From: an uncultured bacterium
GTDB taxonomy: Bacteria > Patescibacteriota > Minisyncoccia > UBA6257 > 2-01-FULL-56-20
Direction of reading: 5' to 3'
DNA: 64,000 nucleotides
NCBI GenBank assembly: GCA_963718575.1
Contig: OY970358.1
Span: 642,172-706,171 of the forward strand
Part shown: one piece after another, positions 22,534 to 62,916 of the stretch
How positions within the stretch are numbered: position 1 is the stretch's first letter
How the letters are laid out: each line of letters starts with the position of its first letter
The notes under the pieces: generated by a model
What the model was told of the DNA's origin: nothing
The model's input: the letters and a program-made list of their open reading frames with translations, nothing else
Databases searched by the model: none
Made by a program: the position numbers and the translations under genes

Positions 22534-22835
22534 ATGGCGATCATCGTTGAAGAAAGCGAAAAAAAGAGCAATCTGTTCGGCATCGTCGGATGGCTGGTCT
22601 TTTTGGCGATCGCCGGCGCGGCAGTCTATTATCTGTTTTTTGCGCAACCGCAGCTGGTGACCATCCCCGCATCGGGGACGCTTGGCTACGATCGCGCCCA
22701 TCGCGCAGATATCCTTGCAACCGCAGACGGTGGTGCAGGGTCCGGAGTTTTCTGGCGCTGACCTCCACGATCGCATTGCCAACGCCGCAAGGCCCGGCGC
22801 CGGTCGGGCGGACCGATCCGTTCGTCGCACCCTAG
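22534..22835 (+). CDS. Small membrane pilus-assembly-like protein, split over three frames (frameshifts)
   Basis: TM helix LFGIVGWLVFLAIAGAAVYYLFF. The downstream frames continue to ...RTDPFVAP with stop at 22833-35. Confidence 0.3.
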
Positions 22836-22955
22836 CATTATATTGCCACACCCTTTCTGAGGGACGCGTCGCGGTCTGCTGACCGCGCGCTTACTCTCGC
22901 CGCCTGCGCGGATCCGAGATGCCCCCAGAAAGGGTGTGGCAATATAATGCTAGGG
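22830..22955 (+). repeat. Hairpin repeat element copy A: 30-bp perfect inverted repeat enclosing a conserved core
   Basis: Arms 22830-22859 and 22926-22955 (CTAGCATTATATTGCCACACCCTTTCTG / reverse complement). The core begins GGGACGCGTCGCGGTCTGCTGACCGCGCGCTTAC, shared with copies at 57017, 58009, 62509 and 62662. Confidence 0.7.
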
Positions 22956-52482: not shown

Positions 52483-52554
52483 GCCGACGTAGCTCAGTGG
52501 TAGAGCAGGGCTTTCATAAGGCCAAGGTCGCAGGTTCGATCCCTGCCGTCGGCA
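52483..52554 (+). tRNA. tRNA-Met(CAT), elongator or Ile2-type
   Basis: Acceptor GCCGACG/CGTCGGC fully paired, D-arm GCTC AGTGGTA GAGC, anticodon loop TTCATAA, T-arm GCAGG TTCGATC CCTGC. Confidence 0.8.
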
Positions 52555-53611
52555 CAAAAAGAAATAGGCATCGCTGTCTCGCTACCGCGTAGGAACGCTC
52601 AAACGCCCGACAGCGATGCCTATTTCTTTTTGTGCAAGTGATGAAGGCGGGAGGATAAAGATAAAAAAAGCCGCTACCTTTGGTAGCGGCCAGTGTTGTC
52701 TTCTGAGGGTGAAAGAATCGATAGCGCGGGTGTTTTGGCGGTTTCCCCGCGAGCTCGTCGGCGTAATCAAGGATCGCTGCGATGTAGAAGTTGTCGTGGT
52801 TGTACGCAAAGAGCGCGCGGCGATGCGATTCCTCGGTTGTTCCCCATTGTGCCCGGGAGAGATAATTGGCGATGCTGCAGATCGCATCGTCGTTGCCGAA
52901 AATGTCCGGGGGATCGTCGTCATCTCCGTCATCGCTACAATGTACGGCAAGTTTGGCATAGGAGGTCGGTTCGAACTGCGGCAGGCCGAACGCTCCGGTG
53001 GCCGATCCTTTGATGGAAAAAAGTTCATCAAGGTCGCTGTTTTGAAAGATAGTAAGGAAAGTGATCAGCTGCTCCTCTGACCATCCGGGTTTTTGGAAAT
53101 CCGGCCGCATCACCGCAAGCGTGTAGAGTCTTACGACGACCGGCCACTTTCCCATGCTGTCCGGTCTTTGTCCCCACTGCGTTTCAATGTTCAGCACGCC
53201 GTCGATGACTTCACGCGGAATGCCGAATTTTTTTTCCGCGTAATCGAGCGCCACTGCGTTATTTTCCAAAAATCTTCGGCTTTGTTCTTTCGACCATACG
53301 CTGAAGACGTAGTCGTAGTCATATCGCTTTGGCTTTGGATTGCGCTGCGGAGCGGCGGGATTCGGGCTCGGGGGATGCTTGAACATGGTCGGGTCGATCG
53401 CAAAGCGTTTATCGTTCGTGATTGTCTCCCCATATTCTCCAAGCTTTTGTTTGATGTGCGCAATGATGAGTTTTTCGCGCACGACAGGATCGAACGGCGC
53501 GGTATGTTTCGTGGTGGCGGTGTTTTTCGCATGCGGAGCGGCGGCCGCGAGCGAAGGCCCAAACAGTGCGGTGAACAACATGCAGATGAGCATCGGGGTT
53601 TTCACGGACAA
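52514..53611 (-). CDS. Membrane-bound lytic murein transglycosylase B-like protein (C-terminal stop apparently lost)
   Basis: Signal peptide and an SLT/MltB-like core (NIETQWG...GAFGLPQFEPTSY...YNHDNFY). The ORF has no stop until 52514, so it reads through the hairpin element and into tRNA-Met. Confidence 0.65.
   Translation of the reverse strand: MSVKTPMLICMLFTALFGPSLAAAAPHAKNTATTKHTAPFDPVVREKLIIAHIKQKLGEYGETITNDKRFAIDPTMFKHPPSPNPAAPQRNPKPKRYDYDYVFSVWSKEQSRRFLENNAVALDYAEKKFGIPREVIDGVLNIETQWGQRPDSMGKWPVVVRLYTLAVMRPDFQKPGWSEEQLITFLTIFQNSDLDELFSIKGSATGAFGLPQFEPTSYAKLAVHCSDDGDDDDPPDIFGNDDAICSIANYLSRAQWGTTEESHRRALFAYNHDNFYIAAILDYADELAGKPPKHPRYRFFHPQKTTLAATKGSGFFYLYPPAFITCTKRNRHRCRAFERSYAVARQRCLFLFVPTAGIEPATLAL
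52555..52632. repeat. 24-bp perfect inverted repeat with a 30-nt loop (hairpin element, looser relative of copies A-E)
   Basis: CAAAAAGAAATAGGCATCGCTGTC ... GACAGCGATGCCTATTTCTTTTTG. The loop contains GGAACGC as in cores C and E. It lies inside the C-terminal reading frame of the MltB-like ORF. Confidence 0.5.
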
Positions 53612-53679
53612 GCCTCCTCGGTTGGAATGTTCAGATGTAAAAATTGCCCTCCCTTCACTTTAGCATTACAATCTTTCTT

Positions 53680-54810
53680 ATGGAATATAAGATCCCTCTC
53701 GACGAGCAGAACCGGATTTTGGCGACGGTCGACAAGCGTACGGACGCGGAGGCGGCGCGGATCAAGCGGTATCTCGCCATGCCGGACCTTTCGCGCACGC
53801 CGGGCAATCCGCTCTATGAGATCGTGCAAGCGGCGATGGAAACGAAATCGCTCAAGGGGTTTGATAACATCATCATCCCGGAGATCGTTCCGGCTGATAT
53901 CAATTTCGATCTTTTCGATTTTGCGCCCGATCATCCGGCGCGGTCAAAGTCCGATACCTATTACGCGGACGACAAAAATATTTTGCGCACACACGACACG
54001 GTGATGTGGTACTACTACACGCAATTGCCGGAGGTCAAAGCGCGCCTCGCGCGCCGCGAAAAGCTTGGCGTCGTCTGCTACGGCAAGGTCTATCGCAAGG
54101 ACGAGATTGACCGCAAGCACATGAACATTTTCCACCAATTCGGCGGATGGTATATGACGCCCGCGGACACCGCGCCGCTCACGATCGACGATTTGCGCAA
54201 CGCGCTTACCGAGATCGTCCGCGCGCTCTTTGGCGCCGACGTAAAGTATCGTTTTCTCGACGACACATTCCCGTATACCGATCCGTCATTGCAGATCGAG
54301 GTTGAAGTGAACGGCCAGTGGATCGAGATCATGGGCGGGGGAATGACGAAGCAGAGCGTGTTCAAAAAATTCGGCGTCGAAGGATATAGCGCGTGGGCGT
54401 TCGGCTTCGGTCTCGAACGGCTTGCGATCATCAGCATGGAATTGCCGGACATCCGCCTGCTCTGGTCCGCCGACGCGCGCGTCAAAAAGCAGCTGCATAT
54501 GGGCACGAAATTTGTGGAGGTCAGCAAATACCCACCGGTCATCCGCGATATTTCTTTTATTGTTCCAAAAACATTCGCGCCGAACGATTATTTCGATCTC
54601 GTGCGCGATATCGCGGGCGATTTAGTGGAGCAAGTGGAGTTGATCGACGAATATGCAAATGATGAAAAATTTGGTGCGGATAGAAAAAGCTATGCATACC
54701 GCATCATCTATCGCTCAAGCGAGCGGACGTTGACGAACGAAGAGGTAGATGTGCTTCACAAGAAGATCGAGGAGGAAACGGCGAAAGAGTTTGGCGCGGT
54801 GGTGCGGTAG
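53680..54810 (+). CDS. pheS: Phenylalanine--tRNA ligase alpha-type catalytic domain fused to a C-terminal FDX-ACB anticodon-binding domain (mitochondrial-type monomeric PheRS architecture)
   Basis: Class II motifs (HPAR, FPYTDPSLQIEVEV, GLERLAI) plus a C-terminal FDX-ACB-like segment (KYPPVIRDISFIV...YRIIYRSSERTLTNEEVD). No pheT is adjacent. Confidence 0.7.
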   Translation: MEYKIPLDEQNRILATVDKRTDAEAARIKRYLAMPDLSRTPGNPLYEIVQAAMETKSLKGFDNIIIPEIVPADINFDLFDFAPDHPARSKSDTYYADDKNILRTHDTVMWYYYTQLPEVKARLARREKLGVVCYGKVYRKDEIDRKHMNIFHQFGGWYMTPADTAPLTIDDLRNALTEIVRALFGADVKYRFLDDTFPYTDPSLQIEVEVNGQWIEIMGGGMTKQSVFKKFGVEGYSAWAFGFGLERLAIISMELPDIRLLWSADARVKKQLHMGTKFVEVSKYPPVIRDISFIVPKTFAPNDYFDLVRDIAGDLVEQVELIDEYANDEKFGADRKSYAYRIIYRSSERTLTNEEVDVLHKKIEEETAKEFGAVVR

Positions 54811-56945: not shown

Positions 56946-57016
56946 CGGGCCGTAGTATACCGGTAGTACGTGCGATTCGGGTTCGTAAAGACCGGGTTCG
57001 ATTCCCGGCGGCCCGA
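56946..57016 (+). tRNA. tRNA-Pro(CGG)
   Basis: C1-G72 acceptor CGGGCCG/CGGCCCG, anticodon loop TTCGGGT, T-arm CCGGG TTCGATT CCCGG and discriminator A. Confidence 0.8.
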
Positions 57017-57130
57017 CAACAACAAAAAGAATATACCCCAAAGGGACGCGTCGCGGTCTGCTGACCGCGCGCTTACGCTCGGCACCTTCGTGCCTCCGCG
57101 AAACCCTTTTGGGGTATATTCTTTTTGTTG
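57017..57130 (+). repeat. Hairpin repeat element copy B (27-bp IR with one bulge + conserved core), abutting the tRNA-Pro 3' end
   Basis: Arms ACAACAAAAAGAATATACCCCAAAGGG / CCCTTTTGGGGTATATTCTTTTTGTTG. Core ACGCGTCGCGGTCTGCTGACCGCGCGCTTACGCTCGGCACCTTCGTGCCTCCGCGAAA. Confidence 0.7.
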
Positions 57131-57283
57131 CCTGTTTGTTCGATGGGAATCGAACGGCGGAGGGGGTCGGGGAACCGCGGTTGGTTCCCCGTGCTGGAGG
57201 CATTCGGAACCGAGGGTTCCGAAAAACGAGCGGAGCGAGTGTGTGAGCTTCCCGGCGGCCCGACTGATAAAATATAATTTCGA

Positions 57284-57321
57284 ATAAAAATGCGCCGGGC
57301 TTCCATGGGGAAGCCCGGCGC
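57284..57321 (-). terminator. Strong hairpin terminator (13-bp stem) on the minus strand
   Basis: GCGCCGGGCTTCC atgg GGAAGCCCGGCGC followed by a T-run on the minus strand. Confidence 0.5.
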
Positions 57322-57630: not shown

Positions 57631-58008
57631 TACTCCTAAGATACGAATGGTAAAGAACACTAATCTTTCACAGCAAGACGGCTGACCGCGCGTATTTTAC
57701 GCGATGGACCAAGCCGCTCTGCGGCCGATTTTTTTTCTGGGCATAGTATCTTCAAATGCTGCGTTGGTCGCCTCTTGGGCGACGGCGGCATCTGGCAGTG
57801 TTATTTAAAATCATCTGCCGATTTGGTGGAACTCCGAATTGTAGAGTCGGAGGACATAATATGGAGACTCTGTGTCACTAATTTAGGTTCTGCGATCTCC
57901 GCTCGGTGACGAGCGAGGAAAGCCGGGCCCGTGCATACGCATATGTACGCAATTTCTCGTGGCAAGTCAGAGTCAAATCAGTGATGAAATTTATTTTATC
58001 ACTGGCAA

Positions 58009-58115
58009 GTGTTGTACACCCCTTTGAAGGGCGTCGCGGAGGCACGAAGGTGCCGAGCGCCAAGGCGGCCGGTCAGCAGGCCGGAACGCCGTCCCTGCAA
58101 AGGGGTGTACAACAC
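58009..58115 (+). repeat. Hairpin repeat element copy C (core inverted relative to B/D), immediately 5' of the 23S rRNA
   Basis: Arms GTGTTGTACACCCCTTTGAAGGG / CCCTGCAAAGGGGTGTACAACAC (1 mismatch). Core CGTCGCGGAGGCACGAAGGTGCCGAGCGCCAAGGCGGCCGGTCAGCAGGCCGGAACGCCGTC. Confidence 0.7.
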
Positions 58116-58689
58116 GAGCAAGTCAGCATTGGGATGGTTGGCAAATAAGGGCGAACGGTGGATGCCTAGACTAGAAAAGGCGATGAAGGACGTGGCGTAG
58201 CAACGAAATGCCTCGGGGAGATGCGTAGCAATCTACGATCCGGGGATGTCCGAATGGGGAAACCTAGTTGAGTAACCCTCAATTGTTTCGACGCAAGTCG
58301 ATTCGCGTACCCGCTGAAGTAAAACATTCCAGTAAGCGGAGGAAAAAAGAACAAATCAGTTATTCCCCAAGTATCGGCGAGAGAACAGGGAACAGCCCAA
58401 ACTAAGGTTGTGATTTATTTCGCAACGTTAGGGTATAGTCTAAAGACGCTGTTTAGTAAATAACGTAGCGCGCTCCTTAAAAAAGTGCGTTTCGTTATTT
58501 GCTATTCGTGAAGGAGTAAAAAAATCATATGTTAGCCAAAGTCGTCTGGAAAGCGACGCCAGAGCGGGTGATAGCCCCCTAGGCGAAAACATTTGGTCTC
58601 CTTAGTTTTTTAACTTGAGTACTTCGGAGTAAAACAGTTCCGGAGGAATATGCCTGTACTATCAGGTAAGGCTAAATACTTTTCTAGAT

Positions 58690-58726
<37 letters not shown>

Positions 58727-60442
58727 CAGGCCGGTGAGGCCGTTGAAATAGAACCTGAAACCGTTTGTCTACAAGGAATTGAACCACGAACGGCTTCCCG
58801 CAAGGGAGGACGAGTGGAACAATGTGCCTATTGAAGAATGATCCAACGACTTATTTTGTGTTGCTTGTCTAAGCGCGCATAGCGTGAAGGCGTAGCGAAA
58901 GCGAGTCTGAATAGGGCGCATGTCTCCCCTTAAAAGGAGATCGCAGCACAAGATAGACCCGAAGCGTTATGAGCTTGCCTTGGCCAGGGTGAACTCCCGA
59001 GAAATCGGGAGGGAGGCCCGAACCGGTTGATTGTTCAAAATCTTCGGATGAGCTGAGGTAAGGAGTGAAAAGCTAATCGAATAACGTAATAGCTGGTTCT
59101 CTCCGAAACAGTTTTAGGACTGGCGGCAAGAGTTCCTCTTGGGGGTAGAGCACTGGATGATCGTTACAGGGGGAAACTCCGAACGATCAATCAAACTCCG
59201 AATACCGAGAGTCAAGATCTTGCTAGTTAGACTGCGGGGGCTAAGCTCCGTGGTCGCGAGGGGAAGAGCCCAGATCGTCATCTAAGGTCCCTAAATTCAT
59301 GCTAAGTGTTAAAGGTAGTCATAACCCATAGACAGATAGGAGGTTGGCTTAGAGGTAGCCATCCTTTAAAGAGTGTGTAACAACTCACTATTCGACGGGT
59401 CGTGGCGCCGAAAATGTACCGGGGCTAAGCATGATACCGAAGATACGAATGTATACTTCCTTCGGGAGGTGTACGTGGTAGGAGAGCATTTCGGCCTGCA
59501 GTGAAGGTCAACCCGCGAGGGTGACTGGAGCGGCCGGAAGAGAAAATGTTGGAATGAGTAACCACAATCCCAATGAGAAATTGGAACCCCGAAAATCCAA
59601 GGTTTCCGTGGCACTGGCAATCAACCACGGGTTAGGCGGTCCTAAGGCGATGGCGAAAGCCGCAGTCGATGGGAAGCTGGTTAATACTCCAGCCCGGCCG
59701 TACGATCATAACTAGAGGACAAAGGAGATAAGCAGATGTGCCTTATTGGTTTGGCATTCTTTGTACTAAGCTCACGCGTGTACCGAGAGAAGGTTAAGAA
59801 TTTACTTAGTCGACATCTGTGAAGTGCCTTTCGAGAAAAATCTGGCCAAATCGAGCGTAAGGTCTCCGTACCGTAAACCGACACTGGTGGATAGGGCGAG
59901 TAGCCCAAGGGGAACGAGTGATTCATCGTTAAGGAACTAGGCAAAATAGCGGCCGTAAGTTAGCAATAAGGCCTGCCCTCGCAAGAGGGCCGCAGCTAAA
60001 GAATCTCTGGCGACTGTTTACCAAAAACACAGCTCCCTGCCAACTCGCAAGAGGATGTATAGGGGGTGACACCTGACCGATGCGAGAAGGTCAAGATTGG
60101 GGGTGGTATGGAGCAATCTGTACTGCTCACTGATTCAAGCCCTCGTCAATGTCAGCGATAACTATGAACAACATTGTAGTTGTAAAATTTGGCTATATGC
60201 TGGAATAACCGTTAGTATCCGGCGCTACTCGAAAGAGTGACAATGCGTCCGGTGCGGTCAATCAGCAGGAAAGGCCTCGATAATTATTATTGAGGAATCC
60301 TCAGAGACTACACGCCAGACCCTAAAATATTTAGGGATGATATAGTCCGAACTATATGGCGACATATAGAGTTGTTCGCGAAGTGCGAGCAGAATAACAT
60401 ACTTGAATCGTTCTAAGGTAGCGCAATTCCTTTTCGGGTAAG

Positions 60443-61168
60443 GTAACTTGCCCCTTTACGCCGCGAGGTGTATTGAAACAGCTGGCTCATAACGGTGAAG
60501 TCCTAAATTTTAGATAAATTTAATGTCTGATTGTTTAGGATAATACCGTGGGAAGTCCATTGATTAAAAATCAAAATGACCCCGTAACGACTTCGTCCTG
60601 CAAGGGACGTAATGAGGTGGTTTTGACCCCTCATTATACGCCGGCTTCTTCAGAAGGAGAGAGAAGAAACATAGCGGAATATATAACCGGTTATGTTGAT
60701 GGTGAAGGATGTTTTACGGTTACGTTCAATACAAAACCAAAAGCTTTGCTTGAATGGGAATTCAGGCCGAGTTTTTCGGTAAGTCAGAACGAAGATCGCC
60801 GTCAGGTTCTCGATCTCATGAGAAACTATTTCGGATGTGGTTTTATCCGCCGTGATTGGAGTGATAAGACCGTAAAGTTCGAAGTACGAGATCATAAGAA
60901 TTTGATGACAAAAATTATTCCTCATTTCGAGAAGTTTCCTCTTATTTCGGCAAAGAACAATGATTTCAAATTATTCAAAACAATTTGTCGCATTGTCGAC
61001 TCGCAGAAACATTTAAGTAAGGCTGGATTTATAGAAGTTATAAATCTTGCTTATCAAATGAATGGCTCTGGTAAAAGAAAAAGAGCAAAAGAAGAAATCA
61101 TCCAATCTCTTTTTGAAGATAAAGATATAGTCTGATCCTCACCGTAAGGTGAGATAACACGGATGAAG
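60443..61168 (+). mobile_element. Intron in 23S rRNA (domain IV region, E. coli about 1917-1931) carrying a LAGLIDADG homing endonuclease ORF; probably group I
   Basis: Exon junction GGGTAAG | GTTCCGAAGCGCACGAAAGG restores the conserved 23S sequence. The junction is ambiguous by 1 nt. Confidence 0.6.
60548..61135 (+). CDS. LAGLIDADG homing endonuclease (intron-encoded)
   Basis: ITGYVDGEGCF motif; the start codon is uncertain (GTG 60548 or a later non-ATG). Confidence 0.8.
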   Translation: MGSPLIKNQNDPVTTSSCKGRNEVVLTPHYTPASSEGERRNIAEYITGYVDGEGCFTVTFNTKPKALLEWEFRPSFSVSQNEDRRQVLDLMRNYFGCGFIRRDWSDKTVKFEVRDHKNLMTKIIPHFEKFPLISAKNNDFKLFKTICRIVDSQKHLSKAGFIEVINLAYQMNGSGKRKRAKEEIIQSLFEDKDIV

Positions 61169-61817
61169 TTCCGAAGCGCACGAAAGGTGTAACGACCGGA
61201 GAACTGTCTCAACGATGAGCTCGGTGAAAATGCGATTCCCGTGAAGACGCGGGATACCTGCAGCGGGACGAAAAGACCCCGGAAGCTTTACTGCAGCTTG
61301 GCATTGATTTTAGAGTTTTACTACGTAGCGTAGTGGTGAGGATTTGAAGCGTCGCTCTCGGGTGACGTGGATCCGACAATGAAACAGCCATTTTTAAAAC
61401 TTTAACGTCTAACTGGTAACGAACCCTTCGGGGAAGCGTTGCTAAGACAGTGCTTGGTAGGCAGTTTAAATGGGGCGTTTTCCTCCAAAAGAGTAACGGA
61501 GGAGTTTATTAAGGTCAGCTTAGCCCGGATGGAAATCGGGCAGGACGTGCAAACGCAAAAGCTGGCTTGACTGCAAGTCCTACAAGACGAGCAGGTGCGA
61601 AAGCAGAAGTTAGTGACCCGACGGCCCTTCATAGAAAGGCCGGAGACACCGGATAAAAGCTACTCCGGGGATAACAGGCTAGTATTGTCCGAGCGTCCCT
61701 AGCGACGACAATGCTCGGCACCTCGATGTCGGCTCGCCACAGCGCGGGGGTGTAGAAGCTCCCAAGCGTTTGGCTGTTCGCCAATTAAAGTGGCACGTGA
61801 GCTGGGTTCAGACCGTC

Positions 61818-62202
61818 AACAAGATAACCCAATCGAAGGTAACGAAGCGAAAGCGGAAACTGTTAAAAAAGAAGAAACGGCGGCCCAGGAAAGCAATTTC
61901 CTGGAGTGAAGCCTTGCATTCAAGTCTGTCATTCGTCCGACAAATCGCAAGGCAAGAAAATCGACTCATATCGGTGAAGTCCTTACTTGGTTTAGACCTG
62001 AACCATGAGGATAATACCGAGGGAAGTCGTGCATGGAGTTATGGAATTTATTTTATGCATTGACCCCTTAGAGACTTAGCGCGTAAGCGCTGGAGTCCGG
62101 CAATCGTGCCGGGCTAACACGTCGGTCATCTTACTAAATTCATTTTTAGCGAGATGGTGGTATAGTCCAACCCGCCAGTAATGGCGATGAAGAATAAGTT
62201 GC
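61818..62202 (+). mobile_element. Second, ORF-less intron in 23S rRNA (E. coli about 2593-2596 region, the I-CreI-type site)
   Basis: Exons GAGCTGGGTTCAGACCGTC | GTGAGACAGGTCGGTCTCTATCTGC are contiguous in the conserved 23S sequence. Shares the motif AGGATAATACCG(T/A)GGGAAGTC with intron 1. Confidence 0.5.
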
Positions 62203-62343
62203 GTGAGACAGGTCGGTCTCTATCTGCTGCAGGCGTGAAATACTTGAGGGGAGTTGACCTTAGTACGAGAGGACTGGGTTGAACATACCTCTGGTCTACC
62301 GGCTTTGCTACCAAGTGAATTGCCGGGTAGCTATGTATGGAAG

Positions 62344-62376
<33 letters not shown>

Positions 62377-62508
62377 CACCCCAAGATTAGGTATGCGTGA
62401 TTTCGTCATAGACTATGACGTTGATAGGCGCTCGGTGTAAGAACAGCAATGTTTTTAGCCAAGGCGTACTAATAATCCCGCCAACCATCCCAATGCTGAC
62501 TTGCATTC

Positions 62509-62614
62509 GATCTGTGTTTGTACTTTGCGGGGACGTGTCACGGTCTGCTGACCGCGCGCTTACGCTCGGCATCTTCGTGCCTTCGCGAAGCCCCTCAAAG
62601 CACAAACACAGATC
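62509..62614 (+). repeat. Hairpin repeat element copy D, immediately 3' of the 23S rRNA
   Basis: Arms GATCTGTGTTTGTACTTTGCGGGG / CCCCTCAAAGCACAAACACAGATC (2 mismatches). Core ACGTGTCACGGTCTGCTGACCGCGCGCTTACGCTCGGCATCTTCGTGCCTTCGCGAAG. Confidence 0.7.
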
Positions 62615-62661
62615 TCATTTCTGATCTACAATCAGAAATCCAAACAAAAAGGCGGCGGGGC

Positions 62662-62778
62662 GCTGCTCATATTTTTGTGTTTCGAAGAGTGTCTCGGAGC
62701 CGCGAAGGCGGCGAGAGCCAAGGCGGCCAGCCAGTAGGCTGGAACGCCGTCCCTGAGAAATATAAAAATATGAGCAGC
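62662..62778 (+). repeat. Hairpin repeat element copy E (core inverted), in the 23S-5S spacer
   Basis: Arms GCTGCTCATATTTTTGTGTTTC / GAAATATAAAAATATGAGCAGC (2 G.U positions). The core is related to C with compensatory stem changes. Confidence 0.65.
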
Positions 62779-62795
62779 ACCACGAACGGCTTTTT

Positions 62796-62916
62796 GATGT
62801 CGGTGCTTCATTCGGGCGTGCCCCACCTCTTCCCATTCCGAACAGAGAAGTGAAAGCGTCCCAATCCCATGATACTTGCGGGTTCGCCTGCGGGGAAAGT
62901 AGGATGTGCCGACATC
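62796..62916 (+). rRNA. rrf: 5S ribosomal RNA
   Basis: CCCACCTCTTCCCATTCCGAACAGAGAAGTGAAAGC...GGGAAAGTAGGATGTGCCGAC; terminal helix GTCGGTG/GTGCCGAC. Confidence 0.85.

Follow-up and report, generated by a model that had tools for sequence, protein, structure and literature searches.

Downstream of a tRNA-Pro(CGG) gene in the genome of an uncultured patescibacterium lies a short non-coding segment, here called X, that ends in an exact copy of the tRNA gene's own 3′ end. The stretch analyzed, to which all positions refer and which we call the window, comprises 64,000 nt (positions 642,172 to 706,171 of contig OY970358.1, assembly GCA_963718575.1). We consider it probable that positions 57135–57264 are one copy of a small non-coding family (about 130–170 nt) of Patescibacteria that inserts at the 3′ ends of tRNA genes and transfer-messenger RNA (tmRNA) genes, in the manner of a non-autonomous MITE (miniature inverted-repeat transposable element). 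The initial annotation had raised this possibility beside that of an integration remnant, and the MITE-like description accords with what we found: X is small, non-coding and repeated, carries a direct repeat of its target and partly complementary arms, and is absent in eight close relatives.

X is linked to tRNA genes and ends in a copy of their 3′ ends

In order to collect the family, metagenomes were scanned with a pattern of the second hairpin of X (H2, see below) taken from the window, with the loop left free. At least 120 loci carried the pattern, at least 112 of which were distinct. Among these 112 distinct loci in the matches listed, to which the counts in this paragraph refer, a tRNA or tmRNA gene ending no more than 330 nt upstream of the motif was present in 75. 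X lies downstream of that gene and on the same strand in all 75, with a median gap of 74 nt from the tRNA end to the motif, and the genes concerned represent at least 29 anticodon types plus one tmRNA. In 7 loci the contig end is too near to judge the neighbor, and 30 have no nearby tRNA.

About half of these 30 belong to a free-standing class of about 14 metagenome loci (e.g. L071, L076, L089, L090, L103–L105, L137, L158, L167, L168, L174, L181). Its members have the same X core with a 5′ hairpin of their own (TTGCGCAGAATTCCCCG...CGGGGATGAATGCGCAA) and a terminator-like hairpin directly after the third helix, H3; they are unlinked to tRNAs and their neighboring genes are unrelated to one another. 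A small-RNA gene of this class could be the parent from which the tRNA-linked copies arose.

In at least 60 distinct loci X terminates in an exact copy (at least 10 nt, median 15 nt) of the local tRNA 3′ end, amounting to the final 10–24 nt of the adjoining tRNA. The copy begins between positions −22 and −10, mostly at −18, −16 or −15, i.e. at the last T-loop bases or within the T-stem 3′ strand, and its end is the last base of the tRNA in 24 of the 60 loci and no more than 2 nt off in most others. What is copied is the 3′ strand of the acceptor/T-arm helix, beginning where the T loop ends and reaching the discriminator base, and the 5′ start of X is complementary to the beginning of this copy. 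Longer terminal repeats occur in loci where a second tandem unit or a remnant of one comes next. Since X ends in a copy of the local tRNA 3′ end in all of these loci, the 16-mer seen in the window is the family's standard 3′ end.

The tRNA-Pro locus in the window

The features of the locus are as follows.

56946–57016/17, plus strand: intact tRNA-Pro(CGG) without encoded CCA, the target gene (ARAGORN; Rfam tRNA model, 55.7 bits)
57002–57017, plus strand: direct repeat copy 1, exact 16-mer
57020–57130, plus strand: tRNA trailer hairpin ("copy B"), with a 26-bp perfect stem (57020–57045 with 57105–57130) and a 64-nt conserved core (57043–57106)
57131–57248, plus strand: X, 118 nt, to which copy 2 is added; holds three small hairpins
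57135–57265, plus strand: X as matched by covariance model R1 (121.8 bits, E=1.9e-28, 136/136 model positions)
57138–57155, plus strand: hairpin 1, GTTCGAT/ATCGAAC (from the letters)
57145–57155, plus strand: core of the X 5′ arm, GGGAATCGAAC; reverse-complements GTTCGATTCCC of the tRNA and forms helix P1 with the 3′ arm
57156–57167, plus strand: purine-rich junction GGCGGAGGGGGT before H2 (from the letters)
57168–57191, plus strand: helix H2, C GGGGAACC G / loop / GGTTCCCC G (family alignment)
57169–57190, plus strand: hairpin 2, GGGGAACC/GGTTCCCC (from the letters)
57203–57223, plus strand: helix H3, TTCGGAACC GAG GGTTCCGAA (family alignment)
57205–57221, plus strand: hairpin 3, CGGAACC/GGTTCCG (from the letters)
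57224–57248, plus strand: junction J31, AAACGAGCGGAGCGAGTGTGTGAGC, running into the 3′ arm (family alignment A1)
57249–57264, plus strand: direct repeat copy 2, the X 3′ arm and copy of the tRNA-Pro 3′ end, exact 16-mer
57292–57321, minus strand: terminator, a 13-bp stem followed by a T run

By tRNA alignment, copy 1 contains the final two T-loop bases, the 3′ strands of the T stem and of the acceptor stem, the discriminator base and one further nucleotide. The 16-mer TTCCCGGCGGCCCGAC occurs exactly twice in the window, 247 nt apart from start to start with 231 nt between the copies, and is not part of a larger unrelated repeat. The duplication reported in the initial annotation is therefore exact, with its second copy at 57249–57264 and not at 57262–57277, which is 13 nt too high; the three hairpins and the minus-strand terminator it described are present as listed above. 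We read copy 2 as a putative target-site duplication. That it is a chance match is hardly credible: many short repeats do occur in a window of 64 kb, but shuffled sequence contains on average 0.11 matches to the 16-mer even when 2 mismatches are allowed, and the same feature recurs at no fewer than 60 independent loci with other tRNAs.

Covariance model R1 finds a single complete copy of X in the window. The segment bracketed by the repeats had been taken as one insert and is better divided, as the trailer hairpin with its 64-nt core and X are two different things: the 64-nt core belongs to another repeat family, separate from X. A trailer hairpin stands between tRNA and X in most loci inspected, including the X-bearing loci that were read directly. 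A short way upstream of tRNA-Pro is the gene for the CCA-adding enzyme; by Pfam scan, the bracket is flanked by this gene and a dUTPase gene upstream and by a small unannotated open reading frame (ORF) downstream.

Evidence that X may move between tRNA genes

At the tRNA-Arg(TCT), tRNA-Arg(GCG) and tRNA-Arg(CCG) loci the upstream DNA is unrelated and the tRNA bodies diverge. Starting at the last base of the tRNA, trailer and X of the three loci are almost the same (by eye, about 95% or more in the alignment), and near-identical copies are found at two tRNA-Arg genes within one metagenome, Ga0078972. Both repeats of each locus agree with the T stem of the tRNA at that locus (CCTAC, CCTCT or CCTGC). 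A single internal 5′ arm sequence is shared by all three loci and fits only the T stem of tRNA-Arg(TCT). Because the repeats are local and the 5′ arm is common, the moving unit would consist of the trailer, the 5′ arm and the core, and the repeat is apparently made from the target, i.e. is a target-site duplication and not the product of a conservative exchange between attachment (att) sites. Two of the three loci contain a second, truncated tandem unit; tandem units would be expected if each insertion recreates the target.

When X subfamilies are defined on alignment columns belonging neither to the arms nor to the search pattern, they combine different tRNA types, and the terminal repeat follows the local tRNA. 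One subfamily is found at Pro, Trp, Arg, Ser, Gly, Gln and Glu tRNA genes and another at Gly, Pro, Ser, Leu and Met tRNA genes. Among the matches listed, X of the window is closest to that of L126, also at a tRNA-Pro gene (91%), and next come copies behind tRNA-Trp and tRNA-Gln.

The distribution of X at tRNA-Pro itself is patchy. The labels on homologues of the CCA-adding enzyme read Paceibacterota, Minisyncoccia or Patescibacteria. In peat metagenomes, every near-identical strain keeps the arrangement of the window, and two contigs of such strains end at tRNA-Pro. In eight relatives whose CCA-adding enzyme is 87–93% identical, the tRNA-Pro 3′ end is the same and a long perfect hairpin comes next; all eight lack X and the second 16-mer at this gene. 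The comparison with relatives that had been proposed thus does reveal empty sites. In a scan at the species level (one genome per species, using the 41-mer of the tRNA-Pro 3′ end), 51 tRNA-Pro(CGG) loci were recovered, of which only 4 carry X by covariance model R1. Several of the 51 have the tRNA, a hairpin and then an X-like sequence ending in a tRNA-like 3′ end, and many others have an ordinary tRNA-Pro(GGG) at the position of X.

Two further loci, L036 and L019, hold different cores between tRNA-Pro(CGG) and a near-copy of the tRNA 3′ end (L036 ...GGATTCCAGGGCGGCCCGAC; L019 ...GATTCTCGGCGGCCCGAC), with X-like ends retained in L036 (AGGATCGAATGGCGGAG...). The arrangement suggests that these cores are further families of the same architecture. 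Covariance model R1 detects neither sequence.

We also weighed the explanation first suggested for the 16-mer, that it represents the attL and attR sites of a phage or genomic island which an integrase inserted into tRNA-Pro and which was later mostly deleted. Integration of this kind classically leaves a direct repeat of a tRNA 3′ end as its signature, and tRNA 3′ ends are indeed used for integration in these bacteria, as an island at a tRNA-Trp gene demonstrates (locus L078). We nevertheless judge this origin very unlikely. The bracket of 231 nt contains no recombinase or other gene fragment, nor does one lie beside it; apart from short chance matches, X is similar to nothing else in the window or in relatives; and X is absent from 2.9 million viral contigs. 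The same short unit at 29 or more anticodon types is not what independent deletions would yield, and in the three tRNA-Arg loci the repeat on the tRNA side is local and not borne by the element. At L078, moreover, the real island lies between the tRNA and X and left an overlap of only 6 nt.

That island is a different kind of event from X. L078 1934–12197 corresponds to L153 with 10,264 bp added exactly at the tRNA-Trp 3′ end, the rest being 100% identical. The island sits between tRNA-Trp and the hairpin plus X, and its junctions share only CCCCGC. Encoded on it are a 494-aa large serine recombinase, a TnsA-like protein, restriction-modification functions (type III restriction helicase, DNA methylase) and an SDH-type protease.

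X has a conserved three-way junction fold

In an alignment of 48 family members (A1), RNAalifold recovers H2 and H3, to which we added P1 from our own model. P1 is formed by the 5′ arm (GGGAATC...) and the 3′ arm (GATTCCC...). On this alignment the X core is predicted to be a three-way junction of P1, H2, H3 and purine-rich joining strands, and covariation supports it. H3, which lies outside the search pattern, has 93.5% of cells paired with covariation in 6 of its 7 pairs. The inner arms of P1, likewise independent of the search pattern, have 84% of cells paired and 6 covarying pairs. H2 is 99.8% paired with 2 covarying pairs and is mostly fixed by the search pattern; pair 44:49 alone was free to vary there (GC in 35, AU in 11). 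The outer arms reach 48% in a fixed register, with all 9 pairs varying on both sides.

For the whole junction, 83% of cells are paired as compared to 77% in shuffled alignments, and none of 500 shuffles reached the observed value; controls in which the partner strand was slid by 1–3 columns gave 31–59%. When the outer arms are combined with the part of P1 in the T stem, the values are 58% and 51.5%, again with 0/500. Outer-arm pairing is perfect at some loci (22 bp in L096), and in the window it is poor. Of the three hairpins seen in the letters, 2 and 3 are conserved throughout the family, with covariation in hairpin 3. Hairpin 1 shows no conservation, even in L126, the closest X-bearing relative; its 3′ half is the family's 5′ arm. 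The consensus of J31 across the family in alignment A1 is AAAAGCGA...GCGCGTGAGA.

A strongly conserved core with covarying helices is what would be expected if X were a resident, non-mobile gene for a functional small RNA that is co-transcribed with the neighboring tRNA or processed like it. The closing helix would then copy the tRNA strand through local duplication, gene conversion or selection, for example for recruiting RNase P, RNase Z or the CCA-adding enzyme. The strict orientation of X with the tRNA agrees with this explanation, as do the repeat, which corresponds to one structural element of the tRNA and usually stops at the mature 3′ end, and the free-standing class, which has its own 5′ and terminator-like hairpins and is unlinked to tRNAs. 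Several observations make it rather unlikely. Near-identical trailer and X sequences stand behind three ancient tRNA-Arg paralogues with unrelated bodies and upstream DNA, subfamilies cut across tRNA types, tandem units are present, and at one and the same tRNA X is patchy (4 of 51 species, none of 8 close relatives). Gene conversion is also hard to square with a repeat that is homologous on one side only. A resident RNA is nonetheless compatible with mobility, in that a mobile RNA gene would satisfy both explanations.

Proposed mechanism of insertion

For the MITE-like element that we favor, we propose that trailer hairpin, 5′ arm and core insert as a unit directly behind the final nucleotide of a tRNA gene. 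The breaks would be staggered, one lying in the T-loop region and the other at the gene end, and filling them in would duplicate about 13–18 nt of the target, namely the 3′ strand of the acceptor/T-arm helix; the 16-mer in the window would be the product of such a duplication. As the element encodes nothing, the enzyme must act in trans. Each insertion would recreate the target, so that tandem arrays can form, and recombination between the repeats could delete the unit cleanly. Most speculatively, the core may be made as RNA by read-through from the tRNA, and its tRNA-like closing helix may let tRNA-processing enzymes excise it. A step at the RNA level is suggested by the coincidence of the repeat with one structural part of the tRNA molecule and by its end at the mature 3′ terminus.

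Such a step would be central if X were a bacterial counterpart of short interspersed nuclear elements (SINEs), moving through an RNA copy and riding on tRNA genes. A read-through transcript would be cut at both ends by tRNA 3′-processing enzymes, because the closing helix mimics a tRNA; the 3′ arm of the RNA would anneal to the nicked bottom strand of another tRNA or tmRNA gene; and a reverse transcriptase acting in trans would copy it (target-primed reverse transcription). The three-way junction would then serve as a handle for the mobilizing enzyme, or as a ribozyme. Such a route explains why the unit starts right after the last base of the tRNA and the repeat usually ends at the mature 3′ end, why local repeats occur alongside a donor-type internal 5′ arm, why orientation is fixed and why the fold of the core is conserved. 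We consider it unlikely, as no reverse transcriptase is linked to X, no poly-A or other hallmark of retroelements is present and the trailer hairpins resemble terminators, and a DNA-level cut-and-fill mechanism fits the data equally.

Insertion of a MITE-like element has to be set against a number of results that weigh against it. No transposase, integrase or reverse transcriptase linked to X was seen among about 120 loci in a search that was not exhaustive, and the neighbors of the free-standing copies are unrelated housekeeping genes. We found no base-exact pair of filled and empty sites with near-identical flanks, so the boundaries of insertion are inferred and not seen; the closest X-free relatives are about 80–83% identical in upstream DNA, and their flanks are too diverged for a base-exact empty site. 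DNA transposons do not usually make duplications of 13–22 bp that end at the last base of a gene. Pairing of the distal 5′ arm with the local repeat is poor (48% in the fixed register), which makes "terminal inverted repeat" only a partial description. Conservation and covariation of the core are unexpected for a purely selfish DNA element and point to a function for an RNA or for a fold of single-stranded DNA, and the counts of G-U versus A-C fit either strand as the folding strand. Because the trailer hairpins look like terminators, read-through into X would be limited. Finally, all family members were gathered with one pattern derived from the window, so the sample is biased toward close variants of H2.

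Comparison with known systems

Sublocation classes of integrase att sites within tRNA genes were reportedly described by Williams in 2002. As in X, attL/attR sites place a partial copy of a tRNA or tmRNA 3′ end, from the T-loop region to the gene end, downstream of the gene and in the same orientation. X differs in having an insert of about 130–250 nt that is non-coding and without an integrase, in having both repeats local in recently moved copies, and in adding an inverted copy (the 5′ arm) and a conserved folded core.

Bacterial MITEs include Correia/NEMIS, ERIC, RUP, BOX and Nezha elements. X resembles them in being small, non-coding and repeated, with partly complementary ends, a target duplication, a patchy distribution among relatives and presumed mobilization in trans. 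In contrast to MITEs, X targets one structural part of tRNA genes in fixed orientation, its duplication is 13–22 bp, and its 3′ "inverted repeat" is the duplicated target and not a transposase-binding end. X is also most conserved internally and not at its ends, and its interior covaries. We know of no parent insertion sequence for X, and no autonomous element sharing its ends was found among the same roughly 120 loci, in a search that was not exhaustive.

Among SINEs and target-primed retroelements are R2, the tRNA-derived SINEs and the Dictyostelium TRE elements. They share with X the link to tRNA or rRNA genes, possible co-transcription with the host gene, a variable target duplication with one fixed edge and tRNA-like ends. 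X is bacterial and lacks a reverse transcriptase partner, an A-rich tail and an internal promoter. Ends that mimic a tRNA minihelix are known from the tRNA-like domain of tmRNA, mascRNA/MALAT1, YrlA and viral tRNA-like structures. By analogy to these RNAs, RNase P, RNase Z or the CCA-adding enzyme could recognize the acceptor/T-arm mimic of X. In X, however, a three-way junction replaces the T loop, and the mimic copies whichever tRNA adjoins, with pairing in the acceptor part often poor.

Searches for known relatives of X

No family of Rfam 15 overlaps X in the window at E<=10. In 19 related loci there was likewise no match at the gathering score, and the free-standing copies gave only chance hairpins at E<=10. 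Two pattern scans of the 2.9 million viral contigs with X patterns were empty, so we rejected a phage origin of X. A Pfam scan of 24 neighbors of free-standing copies revealed no common family, no recombinase and no reverse transcriptase. At locus L083, the sequence of a gene lying between X and a distant tRNA resembles that of a housekeeping ligase.

Several other identities were considered and rejected. X is not a degraded tRNA: the five tRNAs of the window give only an 11-nt reverse-complement match to the T loop, and ARAGORN finds nothing. The same 11-mer is all that X has in common with a minus-strand tRNA-like gene that relatives carry in the dut/tRNA-Pro interval, of which X might have been a remnant. 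There is no Rfam match to tmRNA, SRP RNA, RNase P RNA, 6S RNA or a known ribozyme, and likenesses noted by eye, SRP-like GGAGAGCAG and hammerhead-like CUGAUGAG (L019), are backed by no model. An intron in the T loop or a permuted tRNA was set aside since nothing is missing from the upstream tRNA and a matching 5′ acceptor strand is absent downstream.

Full-text literature searches, including searches with sequence strings, retrieved no description of X, and the main text of a paper presenting 224 motifs contains no such motif. The X family thus appears to be previously undescribed, with absence from Rfam and from the searched literature being no proof of novelty.

Implications for Patescibacteria

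Patescibacteria have tiny genomes with single-copy tRNA genes, and to our knowledge few mobile elements have been described in them. If our reading of X is correct, these bacteria harbor miniature elements that target the acceptor/T-arm 3′ strand of almost any tRNA gene and of tmRNA. This would be a new use of tRNA genes as safe landing sites, in which the gene is left intact and a folded core is carried along. Partial copies of tRNA genes are widely taken as markers of prophages and islands; in these genomes, X elements may be what most of them mark. Should the core be a functional RNA or a ribozyme, it would constitute an abundant, still uncharacterized class. The repeats also have a practical effect in that they break assemblies, as seen with the contigs that end at tRNA-Pro and with a jump between copies of the 64-nt core in locus L006.

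Other repeats and genes

The 64-nt core of the trailer hairpin exemplifies a second repeat family, with a conserved core of about 64 nt and covarying internal hairpins, each copy lying in a different near-perfect inverted repeat of 24–34 bp. Five copies are present in the window.

22830–22955, plus strand: second-family copy
57020–57130, plus strand: second-family copy
58001–58123, minus strand: second-family copy
62509–62614, plus strand: second-family copy
62656–62784, minus strand: second-family copy

They occur in both orientations: on both sides of the 23S rRNA gene, before the 5S rRNA gene and after tRNA-Pro. The family is also found before the 23S rRNA gene in L014 and in the tRNA-Pro trailer of L126, with compensatory changes, and its hairpin-core pattern has no match in the viral contigs. 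Locus L006 (ERZ27250198 k141_1603072, from about 3700 to the end) follows the window up to the 64-nt core and then continues with the flank of core copy A (about 22890 onward), being probably an assembly chimera or else a real recombination at the repeat.

Other tRNA genes of the lineage are directly followed by perfect, locus-specific hairpins with stems of 25–33 bp.

Window, 52552–52635: perfect hairpin
L011, 10342–10428: perfect hairpin
L013, 10305–10391: perfect hairpin
L015, 10200–10277: perfect hairpin

A motif common to the loops, CGTAGGAACG, follows tRNA-Met in the window and tRNA-Pro in relatives. L011 and L013 resemble each other in the stem but have the 21-nt loop in opposite orientations (TCACGTTCCTACGTGGCATTT in one and its reverse complement in the other), as if it had been flipped.

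Unusual tRNA-like sequences were seen near tRNA-Pro in relatives. In L035, tRNA-like pieces broken by long insertions lie downstream of tRNA-Pro(CGG): the 5′ half of a T arm is followed about 100 nt later by CCCGGCGGCCCGAC, and a tRNA-Pro 5′ half has a whole tRNA-like gene nested after its anticodon loop. These pieces may be disrupted or intron-bearing tRNA genes. Relatives also have a 74-nt minus-strand gene between dut and tRNA-Pro (L011 9940–10013; L013 9906–9979), which ARAGORN annotates as tRNA-Leu(UAA). A long variable arm is missing from it, pairing in its anticodon stem looks poor by eye, and scrambled partial copies of it lie about 150 nt downstream on the plus strand; the window has no such gene at that position.

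The 23S rRNA gene of the window (58135–62489) is 4355 nt long as compared to a model of 2925 positions, and holds a group I intron and an ORF for a LAGLIDADG endonuclease (60156–60369, 60548–61135). A perfect processing stem of 25 bp pairs 58118–58142 with 62480–62504 around it; the 5S rRNA gene (62799–62914) follows, and there is no 16S rRNA gene upstream. The usual bacterial phenylalanyl-tRNA synthetase has two subunits, a single-chain layout being known from mitochondria. The window encodes a single-chain enzyme at 53644–54810 (plus strand), with a class II core and a ferredoxin-fold anticodon-binding domain (376–388 aa), and this single-chain form is conserved in all relatives fetched.

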